Of a stretch of DNA of 27,357 nt, positions 12,431 through 20,604 are shown piece by piece. Source of the stretch: a virus; UHGV virus genome UHGV-0082481. The stretch is one strand, 5' to 3'. The translations under genes and the position numbers were made by a program. Position 1 is the stretch's first letter; every line of letters starts with the position of its first letter. Below the pieces are notes generated by a model, which was given only the letters and a program-made list of their open reading frames with translations, had not been told where the DNA came from and searched no databases.

Positions 12431-14197
12431 ATGAACACCACACTGACACCCGCAGATCTCGATCCCCGTCGGCAGGCCATGCTGCTGTACTTTCAGGGAT
12501 ACCGCGTAGCCCGCATTGCTGAAATGCTGGGCGAGAAAGTTGCAACCGTTCACAGCTGGAAAAAACGCGACAAGTGGGGTGACTATGGGCCGCTGGATCA
12601 GATGCAGCTCACCACCGCCGCACGCTACTGCCAGCTCATTATGAAGGAGCACAAAGAAGGGAAAGATTTCAAAGAGATTGACCTGCTGGCGCGCCAGTCG
12701 GAGCGCCATGCGCGGATCGGCAAGTTTAACAATGGCGGCAACGAAGCCGACTTAAACCCTAACGTCGCCAACCGCAACAAAGGCCCGCGCCGTCAGCCGG
12801 AAAAGAACGTTTTCACCGATGAACAGATTGAGAAGTTGGAAGAAATCTTCCATTCCTCCATGTTCAACTACCAGCGCCACTGGTGGGAAGCCGGAAAAAC
12901 CAACCGCATCCGCAACCTGCTGAAGTCACGCCAGATCGGCGCGACCTTCTATTTTGCCCGTGAAGCCCTGATTGACGCCCTGCTAACCGGGCGTAACCAG
13001 ATTTTCCTTTCCGCCAGCAAGGCTCAGGCCCACGTCTTTAAGCAGTACATCATCGACTTCGCCAAAGAAGTGGAGGTGGAGCTGAAAGGCGATCCGATGG
13101 TGCTTCCTAACGGGGCCACGCTGTACTTCCTCGGCACCAATGCCCGCACGGCCCAGAGTTACCACGGCAACTTGTATCTGGATGAATATTTCTGGATACC
13201 GAAATTCCAGGAGCTGCGCAAAGTGGCTTCCGGTATGGCTATTCACAAAAAATGGCGACAAACCTATTTTTCCACGCCATCCAGCCTGACACACAGTGCT
13301 TATCCGTTCTGGTCCGGTGCGCTGTTCAACCGAGGGCGCAACAAAGCCGATAAGGTGGACATCGACCTGTCCCACAGCAATCTGGCCCCCGGCCTGCTGT
13401 GCGCAGACGGGCAGTACCGCCAGATAGTCACTGTGGAAGATGCGGTGCGCGGCGGCTGTAACCTGTTCGACCTCGACCAGTTGCGCATGGAGTACAGCCC
13501 GGACGAATACCAGAACCTGCTGATGTGTGAGTTCGTGGACGATCTCGCGTCTGTGTTCCCACTCAGCGAGCTGCAGGCGTGCATGGTGGACAGTTGGGAA
13601 GTCTGGACCGACTTTCATGCACTGGCCCTGCGCCCGTTTGGCTGGCACGAAGTGTGGATCGGATATGACCCGGCGAAAGGTACGCAGAACGGCGACAGCG
13701 CCGGATGCGTGGTGGTGGCGCCGCCAGCCGTGCCGGGCGGTAAGTTCCGCATTCTTGAGCGTCACCAGTGGCGCGGAATGGACTTCCGCGCCCAGGCTGA
13801 CGCCATCAAAAAACTGACCGAACAGTACAACGTGACCTATATCGGTATCGACTCAACCGGCGTTGGTCACGGGGTTTACGAGAACGTGAAAGCGTTTTTT
13901 CCTGCCGTCCGGGAGTTTGTCTACAACCCCAACGTTAAAAACGCCCTGGTACTCAAGGCCTACGACATTATCAGCCACCGCCGTCTGGAGTTTGACGCCG
14001 GACACACCGACATAGCGCAGTCCTTTATGGCAATCCGTCGCGCCACCACCGCCAGTGGCAACCGCCCGACCTATGAAGCCAGCCGCAGCGAAGAAGCCAG
14101 CCACGCCGATCTGGCCTGGGCAACGATGCACGCACTGTTTAACGAACCGCTGCAGGGCGAATCCGCCAATACCAGCAATATTGTGGAGATTTTTTGA
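12431..14197 (+). CDS. P: Terminase large (ATPase) subunit (P2 gpP-like)
   Basis: 588-aa ORF, divergent from O and followed by the portal gene with ATGA overlap, as in P2. Confidence 0.9.
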   Translation: MNTTLTPADLDPRRQAMLLYFQGYRVARIAEMLGEKVATVHSWKKRDKWGDYGPLDQMQLTTAARYCQLIMKEHKEGKDFKEIDLLARQSERHARIGKFNNGGNEADLNPNVANRNKGPRRQPEKNVFTDEQIEKLEEIFHSSMFNYQRHWWEAGKTNRIRNLLKSRQIGATFYFAREALIDALLTGRNQIFLSASKAQAHVFKQYIIDFAKEVEVELKGDPMVLPNGATLYFLGTNARTAQSYHGNLYLDEYFWIPKFQELRKVASGMAIHKKWRQTYFSTPSSLTHSAYPFWSGALFNRGRNKADKVDIDLSHSNLAPGLLCADGQYRQIVTVEDAVRGGCNLFDLDQLRMEYSPDEYQNLLMCEFVDDLASVFPLSELQACMVDSWEVWTDFHALALRPFGWHEVWIGYDPAKGTQNGDSAGCVVVAPPAVPGGKFRILERHQWRGMDFRAQADAIKKLTEQYNVTYIGIDSTGVGHGVYENVKAFFPAVREFVYNPNVKNALVLKAYDIISHRRLEFDAGHTDIAQSFMAIRRATTASGNRPTYEASRSEEASHADLAWATMHALFNEPLQGESANTSNIVEIF

Positions 14198-15228
14198 TGG
14201 GAAAGAGTAAGAAGAACCGCGCTGCGGCGACGAAACAGATCCAGCTTAAAAGTCAAACTACAGCCGAAGCATTCAGCTTCGGCGATCCCGTTCCTGTTCT
14301 GGACCGCCGAGAACTGCTGGATTATGTGGAATGCGTACAGATGGACCGTTGGTATGAGCCGCCCGTCAGCTTTGACGGACTGGCGCGCACCTTCCGCGCC
14401 GCCGTGCATCACAGTTCCCCGATTGCAGTAAAGTGCAACATTCTGACCAGTACCTATATCCCTCATCCGCTGCTCAGCCAGCAGGCTTTTTCGCGTTTTG
14501 TGCAGGACTATCTGGTATTTGGTAACGCCTACCTGGAGAAACGCACGAACCGATTCGGTGAAGTTATCGCTCTTGAGCCTGCGCTTGCAAAATACACCCG
14601 ACGCGGATTAGACCTGGATACCTACTGGTTTATGCAATACGGTATGACAACCCAGCCGTATCAGTTCACGAAAGGCAGCATTTTTCATCTGATGGAACCG
14701 GATATTAATCAGGAGATCTACGGCCTGCCCGGCTATCTTTCTGCCATCCCATCCGCTTTGCTCAACGAGTCCGCCACGCTGTTCCGCCGCAAGTATTACA
14801 TTAACGGCAGTCATGCAGGCTTCATCATGTACATGACCGATGCGGCGCAGAACCAGGAGGATGTGAACAACCTCCGCAACGCGATGAAAAGCGCCAAAGG
14901 TCCAGGCAATTTCCGCAACCTGTTTATGTACTCACCTAATGGCAAAAAGGATGGGCTTCAGATCATTCCTCTGTCAGAAGTTGCGGCGAAGGATGAGTTT
15001 CTGAATATCAAAAATGTCAGCCGCGATGACATGATGGCTGCGCACCGCGTACCACCGCAAATGATGGGGATTATACCTAATAATGTTGGAGGATTTGGGG
15101 ATGTGGAAAAGGCTAGCTGTGTGTTTGTGAGGAATGAGCTAATACCATTACAGGAAAGAATAAAAGGATTAAATAGTTGGTCTAATGAGAATATAATCCA
15201 ATTCAAACCGTATACACTTGAATTCTAA
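14194..15228 (+). CDS. Q: Portal protein (P2 gpQ-like)
   Basis: 344-aa ORF, same length as P2 gpQ, immediately after P. Confidence 0.9.
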   Translation: MMGKSKKNRAAATKQIQLKSQTTAEAFSFGDPVPVLDRRELLDYVECVQMDRWYEPPVSFDGLARTFRAAVHHSSPIAVKCNILTSTYIPHPLLSQQAFSRFVQDYLVFGNAYLEKRTNRFGEVIALEPALAKYTRRGLDLDTYWFMQYGMTTQPYQFTKGSIFHLMEPDINQEIYGLPGYLSAIPSALLNESATLFRRKYYINGSHAGFIMYMTDAAQNQEDVNNLRNAMKSAKGPGNFRNLFMYSPNGKKDGLQIIPLSEVAAKDEFLNIKNVSRDDMMAAHRVPPQMMGIIPNNVGGFGDVEKASCVFVRNELIPLQERIKGLNSWSNENIIQFKPYTLEF

Positions 15229-15231
15229 GAT

Positions 15232-15257
15232 AATGGGCGCCTACATAGGCGCCATTA
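15232..15257. terminator. Hairpin between convergent Q and the 422-aa ATPase gene
   Basis: Inverted repeat aatgggcgcc-tacata-ggcgccatta (self-complementary GGCGCC arms) in the 48-bp convergent intergenic space, A/T-rich flanks. Confidence 0.4.
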
Positions 15258-15276
15258 TCTATAATAAAGACATGAA

Positions 15277-16545
15277 TTAATTTGGCAACTCCAAATCATC
15301 CTTTAGATCTTTGATATCTTGATGTTGCAACCATATTAGGAAGCCTTTATCAACAACATTCAGTTTCCTATTTGTTTGGTCATAATCCAAAATAATAGGC
15401 ATTATATTTTTCTTTATTTGCAAAGACGCCGTTGATTGTAACGACTGAGTAACATTACCCAGGTTTAACTTCTCCCCTCTTGGATGTACACTTTGTAATA
15501 TTGCCCTTATATCTTTAAATTTCAAACCTAATTCAAGTTCACTAATGGTTGATGAAAGGACAGGATATAAAATCCATTTATGCATTTGAAGTTCAGTATC
15601 TTGAAATCCATCTGAAAAATTAATAAGGAAAGAATTGTAACGAGCCGATTGGTCATTAACAATTTTTGCAATGATATCCTTTCCATCCAAACCAGCTCCA
15701 ATAGTTCTTTTTGTTTGCTGAGTCTCTGATATTCCGCATTCAATACACGCACGCCTACATGCTTCTTGCACTAAATAAATACTATTGAGACAGTGTGTTA
15801 CTACATCTGCTTTGAAAGTTGGATCAAAATCAATGTTAAGGAGTAAACCTCCTTTATCAATTGCCATCTCCAGTTCAGAATCTTGCCATTTGTCTGCGTT
15901 AACAGAAATAATCCTGCCAGTTAAGTCACCATTGTAAACAATGAGCCGATTATCTTCTAGCCAAACTCCAACAATTACAAAAATAATGCTTGATGTTTCA
16001 TGAAAGGCTTTTAATGCGATCGAAAAATCTCTTTGAGTTTCGAAAGGCATATAATGAAAATCCTCAAGAACGATAATCTTCTTGAAATTTATAGATTTTA
16101 AAGCCGCTATAACATCATTAACATCATCAACATCAATTTCTAAAGGCGCGGTTACTTGTTCATGAGATTTCGTATCTTCGATCTCGCCTCCGGCACTCGC
16201 CACAAAACCCAAAATAGAAGTTTTTATTGATGCGATTATTTTATTTTTCCCCGTAATACCTTTCTTGGTAGACTGAGTTATTTCGAATCCAGCTCTTTTT
16301 AAAATACTTGCATTCAATTCAGATACATCAGAACGATTCGAACACTGCACCAAAATATAATCATCAGAATTAATACAGTGTTTTCTTACGCAAGTCTTAC
16401 CCTGCTTTGAACTGCCGTAAATAACAATATGTTTCTTTGCTTGTAATTCCTGTTTAAGTTTGAAATCAACATCAGGTCTTTCAATGTAATTAAGTGGCAA
16501 ATCTCTTGAGAGCCCAAAGATATCATTCGTATCAAAAATTTCCAT
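15277..16545 (-). CDS. P-loop ATPase of unknown function (accessory/moron gene)
   Basis: 422-aa ORF, strongly AT-rich; Walker A GSSKQGKT and Walker B-like KIIVLEDFH; convergent with Q, lying between the portal gene and the candidate cos/accessory region. Confidence 0.7.
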   Translation of the reverse strand: MEIFDTNDIFGLSRDLPLNYIERPDVDFKLKQELQAKKHIVIYGSSKQGKTCVRKHCINSDDYILVQCSNRSDVSELNASILKRAGFEITQSTKKGITGKNKIIASIKTSILGFVASAGGEIEDTKSHEQVTAPLEIDVDDVNDVIAALKSINFKKIIVLEDFHYMPFETQRDFSIALKAFHETSSIIFVIVGVWLEDNRLIVYNGDLTGRIISVNADKWQDSELEMAIDKGGLLLNIDFDPTFKADVVTHCLNSIYLVQEACRRACIECGISETQQTKRTIGAGLDGKDIIAKIVNDQSARYNSFLINFSDGFQDTELQMHKWILYPVLSSTISELELGLKFKDIRAILQSVHPRGEKLNLGNVTQSLQSTASLQIKKNIMPIILDYDQTNRKLNVVDKGFLIWLQHQDIKDLKDDLELPN

Positions 16546-16660
16546 TTTAATATTCTCAACGTTCAGAATTTGCTACTAAACATATAATGCTCCGCGTTTT
16601 TTTGCAACTTGTCTCGAATATTTATATGAGATTGTTCTCATATAAATTAACCAGCGCGCG

Positions 16661-16679
16661 CTCGTATCCCCGCCACGCC
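16661..16679 (-). other. Candidate cohesive-end (cos) core
   Basis: Minus strand reads GGCGTGGCGGGGATACGAG; the first 13 nt match the 19-nt cohesive end I recall for phage 186 (GGCGTGGCGGGGAAAGCAT; P2 differs by one base in that stretch). Recalled from memory, not verified. Confidence 0.3.
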
Positions 16680-16728
16680 TGCCCGCTTTATGTAGTGGTT
16701 TTCATGCAGGTGCATGATCTACGCAAAA

Positions 16729-16748
16729 GCCCGCCAGTTCTGGCGGGC
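16729..16748 (-). terminator. GC-rich hairpin with T-run on the minus strand
   Basis: GCCCGCCAG-ttc-TGGCGGGC perfect 9-bp stem preceded on the plus strand by AAAA (TTTT after the stem on the minus strand). Confidence 0.4.
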
Positions 16749-17021
16749 CTTAGCAAAAACGATCCTCAAACGATCATGCAATCTCATGCAGCATAGACAT
16801 GCACAGACGAGTAAAGCGAATCGGACTTTACGCAAGGTGAACTCCTCAGCGGGTATAATCAGTATGTCGGAAAATCTCTAAAAATAAATAATTCGGTTAA
16901 CAGGTATGCTTACAAAAGCATATATTTGATTAAAAATCATGTAAGGGGGAGGATCTCAAACTGAATCGCCACGGGTTTTACAAATTTCGATAGTCTCTCT
17001 AACGTTTCGGATGAGGTCAAA

Positions 17022-17447
17022 ATGAAAAGCTTTTACGTATTAATTTTAATTCTGGTTGCAAGCTTTGTTAGCGTCCCAGTTCAGGCGGTAACAGCTAAAA
17101 ACTATGAGAAAGGAACTAAAGCTCAACAGAAATCAATATCTTACCTTTCATGTGCATTCTATGGCAGTAGCACACAATTAGATCCTAGCTACACGGGGCA
17201 AGTACCTACAGCCGATATCAAGATATTACAGAAAGCAGCTTACCACGCTTACAACGATGCGCTCTCATACTTTGGCTATGAGGAACCAGATCACGAACAA
17301 CGCATAATTGATTATGCTGAATTTGTGGCGTCGCAAGAAGCTGTGTTATGGGATAAGCCGGGAATGAATGGAAAGCAGGTAACACTAATTGCTCGTTCTC
17401 TCTACAATGAGAGTAACTGTAACTTGTTACTGGACTCAATTAAGTAG
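17022..17447 (+). CDS. Small secreted protein of unknown function (accessory gene)
   Basis: 141-aa ORF with a typical signal peptide (MKSFYVLILILVASFVSVPVQA), GAGG about 8 nt upstream of the ATG, AT-rich; opposite in orientation to the flanking phage genes. Confidence 0.6.
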   Translation: MKSFYVLILILVASFVSVPVQAVTAKNYEKGTKAQQKSISYLSCAFYGSSTQLDPSYTGQVPTADIKILQKAAYHAYNDALSYFGYEEPDHEQRIIDYAEFVASQEAVLWDKPGMNGKQVTLIARSLYNESNCNLLLDSIK

Positions 17448-17606
17448 GAAAAAGATGGTATTTTGCCGGTAGTTTCAACCTTAATCTCCGAACCTGTCGC
17501 AGAACGGGCGTTCACTCATCAAATAAACGCCACACCTAACGCCTCACTGTACTCGTTGTTCAACCTTGCTGACGCCAGAACCAAGTTCAGACGCCAGCAA
17601 CTTTTC

Positions 17607-17840
17607 TTAATGCAGCCAGCTGTCGTCTTCCCACACCTTCTGCATAATTTTCATCACTTGTTTTCTTTCTTCGTCCAGTTGCAGTCCGGTCAGTTCCACA
17701 CCGTTAGAGCTACCTTTGCGGATGCGAATTACCGTTTTGGGATACAGGGGGCGCAGATTGCGGTAAAGCTCTGATTCAAGGGCGTCCAGGGTAGACTGGC
17801 TAATCTTCTGCTCTTTATCGATCATTATTTCAATGCGCAT
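17607..17840 (-). CDS. DinI-family protein (186 Tum C-terminal-like; possible SOS antirepressor component)
   Basis: ORF 17607-17912; start at the internal Met (17840) gives a 77-aa protein MRIEIMIDKEQ...KVWEDDSWLH that parallels E. coli DinI (MRIEVTIAK...ETWESADDWFVSE); GAGGTG RBS upstream; downstream of a LexA box. Confidence 0.7.
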   Translation of the reverse strand: MRIEIMIDKEQKISQSTLDALESELYRNLRPLYPKTVIRIRKGSSNGVELTGLQLDEERKQVMKIMQKVWEDDSWLH

Positions 17841-18189: not shown

Positions 18190-20604
18190 TTAATACAGCT
18201 CCCGCCACTTATCATCTTCCTGCAAACGCTGGTTCCGATAGAAGATACGCAGGCCTGCTCCTGACGGAATACTGCCGCCGCGAAGGAGTAAATCGACTTC
18301 TTTCTCGCTGCCATCAAATCCTCTGGACTTCAGTTCATAGACGAGCTGCTGTCGCTGATGGTCTGTAATTCGCTGTTTGTAGTCTTTACGCCGTTTCGGT
18401 TTCACCAGGCGTAACCTTGCAGCCAGTTCCCGGCGCTCTTTTTTGCTCATACTGTGCAGGTAATCGTGCAACTCCTTGTCATCCATGCGGGTGATATCCG
18501 TTCTGGTATCTCCATCAGCTGATTTGTCTTTCCCTTGTTGGTACAAATTTTCAGCAAGGGGACAGTTATTGCCACGAGTCCAAGGGGCGCAAGCGCCCTG
18601 GTCGGCTGCCGCCTCCTGAACGTCAACGGCCTTACGAACCATTTTCCACTTCACGGCATGAGTGCAGATTTTGCCCTCTGCAATGGGTGACCAGATGCCA
18701 TAAATACGAATGCCGTGATCGCCATAGGCGGTCGGCTCTTCGTTGATTTCATAAGCGGTTCTGATGAGGTGATATTTACGGGGAACCAGTACGCCGCCCT
18801 GCTTCATGATGTAGGTGGCAAAACAACCAGCATCAGCTGCAGCCAGAATGGCATCAAGGCGCGGGTTATCCAGTACCGGCGCACCTGCTTTTTTGTCACC
18901 CTGTTGCCTTGCCGCCTGACCAGCCAGCAATCGCAGTTCACGGTAAGCCTGACGCCCCGGAATGCCAAAGAAGCGGAATTGCTGAACACGATGCAGAGAC
19001 GCCCAGGCATTAACGTATTCAGCGTTATCACGCAGAGATTTACCCGTTTCCTTGCTGATCTCGCCAGCCAGACCACGCCCGTCAATGTTCTTACTGATGT
19101 ATTTCGCGATGTAGCTAGTCGGCGTTCCTTTGCGCGGGTTTATCAGCTCAGACTTAAAGCGTGGCCCCGTGTTATTACCCAGCTCCTCGCGGTCTTCACG
19201 GATAGCAAACTTACGCAACAATGCAGTAATGGCGCGGCGGTCTTTTTTGCGCATGAAACACAACAGGTGCCAGTGAACTGTGCCGTCATGATGCGGCTCA
19301 GCCACCCGCACGCCATACCAGCGCAACCCGGCTTTGTGCATCGCCTTACGAAATGCAGCAAACATGCCGACCAGATAATCGCTGCTTTGTCTTACCGTCG
19401 CGTTTGTCCAGGTCGGGTTTGGTCTGCCGTTATTTAGCGTGGAATGGAAACGCGACGGACAGGTGATAGTGTAGAAAACGGCGCAGTCACCGCGCATTTC
19501 CGCGATAAGCTCCAGACCTTTAACACAGGCCATCATCTCATTGCGGCGATGCGCAGGGTTGCTGCTGCTGGCGTTTACCACATCCTCCATGTCCAGCGTG
19601 TCGCCGTCTTCGTTCACCAGTTCATGAGAACGGAAAAACTCCAGCGACTTACGGCGCTGCTCACGTTTATGCATCACGGCTTCATAGCTGACATAAGGAG
19701 ATGCTTTTTTGCTGACCAGGCAAACAGCGCGCAACTGCTCTTCCCGCCATTCGCAACGCATCTTCCATAATTTCCGATACCACCAGTCGGCGCACAACAT
19801 ACGCGCCAGCGAACCCGGAATGAGTTCATAGGGCACGGGTTTACGGCGGTTTCTTTTCCGACGGAGTTGCTCAAACGCAGGTGGGATGACATCCAGACGC
19901 AGGGTTTCCGCTGCCACCTTTTCCCATGTCTTGCGGATTTCTTCTGGCTTAACGTCATCGGTGGCATACAAATCACCACAAGCTGCATCAAGGCACATAC
20001 TCATATGCGCAGCTACCAGGGTGGATAGGCGTTTCACCTGATCCTGACTCATTTCAGGCAGGATCAGCAGACCGTCCAGCCCTTCATGGCTTGCCATAAA
20101 GCGAAAAGAAGTGGATAGCTGACTGTCGCGTACATGCTCCAGTCGTTCCAGACATGGCTTAATCGTCTCACGCAAATAGCGGGAATAAGCCTTTGGCCTG
20201 CCCAGGCTGCTGAAGTATTCAATACGTTGCATCAGCGGCTTGCTGATATGGGAAGGCTGGGCGTTGACGTCCGCCAGAATGACCATATCCGGATTAAAAC
20301 GCTGCTGCTCATGCGCCAGCTTTGCCCGACTAATGAGCTTATCCTGTTCCATTTCGCGCTGGACAGGATCACGGGATTCATTAAAGAAATAACGCTCCCA
20401 GACCTGATCACTCAGCGCCTCACGGCGCAGCTGTTCCTGCTCGTTATCGGCAGCGTACAGAGTGATCAGGTTTGAAAGCGCAGAAACCGGCGCAACTTCC
20501 GCCGGGTCCAGATAAGGGTTAATGGCCTTTTTCGGGCTGTTCCATGAGAATGCTGCGGCGACCTCGTTAAAGCCGCTGCAGTTGTTCATATCAGCATGGC
20601 TCAT
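18190..20604 (-). CDS. A: Replication initiation protein (P2 gpA-like rolling-circle endonuclease)
   Basis: 804-aa ORF, size and position as for gpA, last large gene of the early operon. Confidence 0.85.

Follow-up and report, generated by a model that had tools for sequence, protein, structure and literature searches.

Which function is carried by a solitary, AT-rich ATPase gene beside cos in a P2-like prophage? This question was raised by a stretch of 27,357 nucleotides (virus genome UHGV-0082481; hereafter, the window), in which the gene is carried by a P2/186-like E. coli prophage. A preliminary description, made from the letters of the sequence, had named it a candidate single-gene anti-phage or abortive-infection ATPase.

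A Stand-Alone ATPase Gene between the Portal Gene and cos

The ORF was recovered at exactly the coordinates described before, on the minus strand, and 422 stop-free codons are expected by chance with a probability of about 3e-14 at ~35% GC (our estimate). The product is identical to WP_000402159.1, and E. coli APEC IMT5155 has a 100% identical copy under the annotation "hypothetical protein". The AT-richness that had been claimed was evident, with a GC content of 0.34–0.37 over positions 15001–16500 versus 0.50–0.59 in the structural genes on either side. As had been stated, the ATPase gene converges with the portal gene Q (14194–15228, plus strand; Pfam Phage_portal), and a spacer of 48 nt separates the two. 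Likewise, no partner gene adjoins it on the same strand: only 106 bp lie 5' of the start codon before cos is reached, and the next ORF beyond cos (17022–17447) is on the opposite strand. An Rfam search for a non-coding RNA partner found none. The features of the locus are as follows.

15236–15253, both strands: GC-rich hairpin, candidate bidirectional terminator, in the spacer that parts the stop codon of Q from that of the ATPase gene
15277–16545, minus strand: coding sequence of the ATPase, 422 aa, ATG start (ORF call and PADLOC PDC-S59 match)
16546–16651, minus strand: cassette-specific upstream region; homology with sibling prophages ends at 16652
16602–16607 (TTGCAA) and 16579–16584 (TATGTT), minus strand: weak sigma-70-like candidate promoter with a 17-nt spacer, read by eye
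16620–16631 and 16636–16647: perfect 12-bp inverted repeat within the upstream region
16652–16804, no strand assigned: conserved cos core block of 153 bp, common to all sibling prophages, dividing two cargo slots
16661–16679, minus strand: cos cohesive-end sequence GGCGTGGCGGGGATACGAG, unique in the window
16805–17535, plus strand: A-side cargo slot, holding a 141-aa signal-peptide protein (17022–17447, phrog_7437)

The sequence GGCGTGGCGGGGATACGAG had a single match in the window and none in 100 shuffles, aligned to the cosR region of P2, and the identical 19-mer was found in sibling prophages. Since cos is thereby located at 16661–16679, the ATPase gene lies between Q and cos, and gpA (18190–20604) follows on the other side. 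The site had been called equivalent to the tin/old locus of P2. This was correct insofar as both belong to the same published defence hotspot, the Q–A interval (Rousset et al. 2022), but the gene is on the opposite (Q) side of cos. In P2, old and tin occupy the interval from cos to A, and the distance from cosL to the Q terminator is only 140 bp, all of it non-coding.

The slot beside cos is a variable cargo site, as had been supposed. Among 5,426 complete E. coli genomes, 1,290 had a frame extending from Q to DinI, the cargo of which differed widely, and the ATPase gene was found in only 11 genomes. A survey of the Q-to-A interval in six sibling prophages revealed unrelated cargo in the Q–cos slot, in the same orientation: retron Ec67, retron St85, AIPR, RES, an S1-peptidase pair and another AAA ATPase. 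The gene lies between gpQ and gpA beside cos, at a position that varies among related prophages. The cos core shares 89–97% identity with the sibling prophages (L092–L097) over ~150 bp and is bordered by unrelated sequence on either side.

The two sides of cos reassort independently. Positions 16653–17700 were 99% identical to a prophage that carries the S1-peptidase cassette in its Q-side slot, and the ATPase elsewhere co-occurs with DUF4145, a KAP NTPase or another hypothetical protein. The protein WP_000402159.1 itself is tabulated as "hypothetical" in the P2 hotspot tables, with three different co-cargo sets (Rousset et al. 2022). The 141-aa phrog_7437 protein is not a partner of the ATPase, and the A-side slot is independent. 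The P2 hotspot model is refined by these data: two independently reassorting cargo slots are parted by the 153-bp cos core, and it is in the Q-side slot that retrons and the ATPase gene are found.

Upstream Region of the ATPase Gene

A promoter scan upstream of the ATPase gene yielded nothing above threshold, and the hexamers listed above, which fall below it, may serve as a promoter. Folding of the 5' region was not better than that of shuffled controls (z = −1.55). The upstream region was conserved only in the closest relative (95%), and the palindrome and promoter were rejected as a family-wide regulatory element since they are kept only there.

The palindrome between cos and the gene bears on one alternative, namely that the ATPase is a cos-associated or regulatory prophage protein that binds near cos or at the 12-bp palindrome and modulates packaging, interferes with satellite P4 or controls neighbouring genes. 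In several diverged P2-like phages the gene adjoins cos and its divergence tracks that of portal and terminase, and the product has a winged-helix domain (see below). However, most homologs reside outside P2-like phages, the palindrome is restricted to the closest relative, and sibling phages with unrelated cargo in the slot package normally. Such a role is therefore considered very unlikely.

Predicted Architecture of the ATPase

The two N-terminal ATPase motifs that had been pointed out were confirmed by direct reading and are intact: Walker A (GSSKQGKT) corresponds to residues 44–51 (nt 16393–16416) and Walker B (IIVLEDFH) to residues 157–164 (nt 16054–16077). An AlphaFold model (pLDDT 85.6, pTM 0.80) delimited the following domains.

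15886–16440, minus strand: AAA+ alpha/beta core (approximately residues 36–220), from AlphaFold secondary structure and pLDDT and from motif conservation
Residues 86–108, within the core: basic beta-hairpin insertion
Residues 109–131, within the core: disordered, variable loop
R211, within the core: putative arginine finger
15649–15885, minus strand: helical lid domain (approximately residues 221–299), with Q260 and C267 conserved
15316–15519, minus strand: C-terminal winged-helix domain (approximately residues 343–410), three helices and a beta-hairpin wing

Thus, the C-terminal ~230 aa that had been set apart as a region of unknown function can now be assigned to an AAA+ lid followed by a winged helix, an architecture that the structure search identified as that of Orc1/Cdc6 and PF01637 proteins. 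In the model, the winged helix comprises helices at residues 343–353, 362–370 and 372–378 and strands at 386–389 and 394–397. Walker A, Walker B, the arginine finger and the order of alpha/beta core and helical lid are those of the AAA+ superfamily. In a deep alignment, K50 was conserved in 100%, E161 in 87%, D162 in 72%, FHY in at least 94% and R211 in 99% of sequences, and Q376, P383 and D399 of the winged helix in 97–100% family-wide. From its sequence, the protein is predicted to be a catalytically intact AAA+ ATPase. The hairpin insertion has a net charge of +4. DNA binding is not assured since the winged helix is only weakly basic (net charge +1).

The best structural matches were archaeal PF01637 ATPases (PDB 2qen PABY2304, 2fna SSO1545), with only 12–15% identity, and Orc1/Cdc6. 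The likeness to the former concerns architecture, not mechanism, because those archaeal proteins have no known function. By sequence, the PF01637 model ATPase_2 (gathering threshold of 33.2 bits) did not match the window protein and gave sub-threshold matches in 5 of 87 relatives, and an ORC-CDC6-like Pfam match was weak and limited to 1 of 87 members. The resemblance to Orc1/Cdc6 is thus structural, without membership at the sequence level. Moreover, Orc1/Cdc6 has a helical initiator-specific motif where the prophage ATPase has the beta-hairpin and disordered loop, and Orc1/Cdc6 is an essential initiator whereas the ATPase is an accessory gene of mobile elements with patchy distribution and foreign composition. 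Among viral structures (BFVD), only generic clamp-loader and AAA+ matches were obtained (TM at most 0.47).

Searching solved structures by sequence with the single protein or a close alignment gave nothing meaningful. The deep family profile alone reached TnsC of Tn6677 (E ~1e-4), the best solved-structure match by sequence, with an alignment spanning Walker A and Walker B to the arginine-finger motif NGDLxGR. Among Pfam families, the window protein scored 21.3 bits for AAA_22 (threshold 27) and 17.3 bits for TniB (threshold 22.4). AAA_22 was matched by 75 of 87 family members, with E-values of up to 0.01 in many homologs, and TniB by 24 of 87, always below threshold. By these scores the ATPase appears to be a distant relative of AAA_22 and TniB, below the curated cut-off for membership. 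TniB, TnsC and MuB, to which its ATPase core is closest by sequence, are ATP-dependent DNA-coating oligomers.

The prophage ATPase could, in principle, belong to a transposition system or be left over from one, as a target selector of the TniB/TnsC/MuB type. The sub-threshold TniB and AAA_22 scores and the TnsC match point in this direction, as does the low rmsd with which TnsC and MuB superpose on the model. Yet no transposase, TniQ or TnsA/B neighbour was conserved in ~160 loci, the immediate neighbours in ~80 genome loci and 48 viral loci comprised no linked transposase or target-selection gene, no terminal repeats were found at the cassette boundaries, and the additional C-terminal winged helix is foreign to TniB and MuB. 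We regard this origin as extremely improbable.

No effector domain was found in the 422-aa protein (nuclease, TIR, SIR2, protease, membrane or other). The only fusion partners among homologs were an nSTAND3 NTPase and a weak alpha/beta-hydrolase match, which are not informative enough as clues to an effector. One explanation without DNA binding is a minimal STAND-like sensor, reduced to a nucleotide-binding domain, a helical domain and a winged helix. On sensing a phage protein it would kill or arrest the cell (abortive infection), either through uncontrolled ATP hydrolysis or by switching on a host factor whose gene lies elsewhere. The protein has neither sensor repeats nor an effector domain, unlike Avs and bNACHT, and assignment to the STAND NTPases (Avs, bNACHT, NLR-like) was rejected on these grounds. 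In addition, its structure is closer to PF01637 and Orc1/Cdc6 and its sequence to TniB/TnsC, the H-P motif is conserved to only 43–49% in the deep family, and the very high conservation of the protein speaks against recognition of variable phage proteins. A STAND-like sensor is accordingly rated as unlikely.

The preliminary description had also held that the gene is not simply an old homolog, since no Old-like TOPRIM signature was visible. This was borne out. BLASTP against P2 Old gave E = 1.1, Pfam revealed no TOPRIM, AAA_15 or AAA_21 match, PADLOC gave no match for Old, Gabija or PARIS, and the fold is AAA+, not ABC; Old combines an ABC-type ATPase with a TOPRIM nuclease. What is shared with Old and Tin is the concept of the hotspot: AT-rich, non-essential genes beside cos with their own (here putative) promoter.

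The ATPase Belongs to the Candidate Defence Family PDC-S59

Comparison with the PADLOC models identified the protein as a full-length member of PDC-S59 (E = 4.8e-72, 241 bits; residues 5–411 of 422 aligned to positions 4–405 of 428). No difference from this family was apparent: the HMM match is full-length, the system consists of a single gene, and homologs are embedded in known defence systems. PDC-S59 is itself a candidate. PDCs are defined as genes that lie within BREX, DISARM or type I RM loci, their definition followed on earlier Hma-embedded candidates, and they were put forward as candidates on the principle of guilt-by-embedding (Payne et al. 2024 preprint). The idea of a defence gene is thus already known, the family being a published candidate and the exact protein being present in the hotspot table of Rousset et al. 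The string PDC-S59 was absent from the supplement of Payne et al., a literature search found no mention of PDC-S59 or WP_000402159, and no described fold or mechanism for the family was found in the literature.

More than 2,300 homologs, with 47–62% identity, were found across bacterial phyla and haloarchaea, in a distribution that is patchy yet spans many phyla. Such cross-phylum identity is unusual for a protein engaged in an arms race and suggests that the target is conserved, cellular or DNA, and not a phage protein that evolves fast. In 66 of 69 loci the gene was richer in AT than the surrounding sequence, with a mean difference of 15 GC points.

Genomic Neighbourhood of the Homologs

Homologs were found in or beside defence loci, both Hma and others based on helicases, with Dpd-, DISARM- and BREX-type matches. 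In two Firmicute loci (L038, L047) the order is HmaA, homolog, DUF1156, and other homologs adjoin helicases matching the DpdF/E, DrmD/A and BrxH models. One homolog is adjacent to two Pycsar-type TIR genes, with IS66 and ParE, and further homologs reside in a Burkholderia prophage and, beside HicAB, in a Serratia 186-like prophage. Most neighbours were ordinary housekeeping genes. All-against-all clustering of neighbours within three genes revealed no conserved partner gene in 80 species-level loci, and Pfam analysis of the immediate neighbours yielded no common family. The full-length PDC-S59 match, the defence-type slot, the defence-adjacent homologs and the lack of a conserved partner are all in line with the earlier proposal of a single-gene anti-phage ATPase.

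Other neighbourhoods point to replication. In at least 3–4 unrelated lineages, homologs were located directly downstream of ribonucleotide reductase (RNR) genes and shared their strand; two RNR classes were represented. The upstream neighbours also include a ThyX gene and a DnaB gene; a motif search did not single out which loci these are. A known hotspot beside nrdB in P. aeruginosa was looked for as well, and none was found described in the core-hotspot paper or in other literature. A sister clade (~30% identity) occupies the nin region of lambdoid prophages, between O/DnaC-like genes and NinB/NinG/Q, where it is co-directional with the replication genes. For this clade, a role in the lytic cycle is as plausible as defence.

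The gene may have no part in defence. Its product would then serve mobile elements and some chromosomes as an accessory factor in replication or nucleotide metabolism; an ATPase that binds origins or forks, for instance, could help the element to replicate or link replication to the supply of dNTPs. It might also be an anti-defence factor. The Orc1/Cdc6-like architecture, the RNR, ThyX and DnaB genes upstream and the lambdoid sister clade would fit such a role. So would the finding that in 58 of 78 loci the gene shares its strand with the upstream neighbour, and a conservation across P2-like phages as strong as that of portal and terminase. Against this, the gene is dispensable, since ~1,280 of the 1,290 E. 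coli prophages that have the Q-to-DinI frame do without it and hold other, unrelated cargo. Retrons and similar systems can take its place, its base composition is foreign nearly everywhere, it occurs in or beside known defence systems, and RNR adjacency accounts for only ~2–5% of loci. An accessory role of this kind therefore has a low probability in our view.

A Model for the Function of the Cassette

The interpretation to which we give slightly better than even probability is that the gene is a mobile cargo cassette of the Q–cos slot whose product is a switch of the AAA+ type that has no effector, binds DNA and keeps other phages out. The gene, its fold and motifs, its solitary state, its place in the hotspot and its mobility are shown by the data above: positions 15223–16651 are a self-contained, horizontally mobile cassette encoding one PDC-S59 protein. 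A function in defence, DNA binding, oligomerisation and the target are inferred. The gene would most likely serve lysogenic conversion: transcription would start in the upstream region of the cassette and run away from cos, and the product would guard lysogen and prophage alike from other phages. The ATPase may work as a switch that depends on ATP and forms oligomers on nucleic acid in the manner of Orc1/Cdc6, MuB and TnsC. It would bind phage DNA that is entering the cell or being replicated, or else a complex that replicates the phage, and thereby stop replication or packaging directly while leaving the DNA uncut. Alternatively, the host replisome may be stalled, resulting in abortive infection.

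A parallel is offered by the BREX proteins BrxC and BrxD and by DUF499, which are also ORC/Cdc6-like AAA+ modules and are part of anti-phage systems that halt phage replication without an obvious nuclease. BrxC likewise has a winged helix after the ATPase. These proteins work only alongside the products of several other genes, such as a methyltransferase, PglZ or helicases, whereas the prophage ATPase is stand-alone and has one third of the size of BrxC; the PADLOC Brx models did not match it.

A bolder but doubtful proposal is a new form of single-protein immunity without an enzymatic effector, in which the ATPase would stop replication after loading onto foreign DNA that is being replicated, or onto some conserved component of replication or dNTP supply. 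A conserved replication-linked target, in place of a variable phage protein, would explain together the conservation across domains (47–62% identity between E. coli and haloarchaea), the portal- and terminase-like conservation in P2-like phages and the repeated placement directly downstream of RNR, ThyX and DnaB genes and beside lambdoid replication genes.

If the cassette has no phenotype, the gene would be an ordinary uncharacterised prophage moron. If it protects, one of the 145 PADLOC candidates would be validated, and a type of defence would emerge that consists of an Orc1/TnsC-like ATPase with a winged helix alone, without a nuclease, NADase, protease or membrane effector. Since its members are small, soluble and extremely conserved from enterobacteria to haloarchaea, the family is tractable for biochemistry and structural work.

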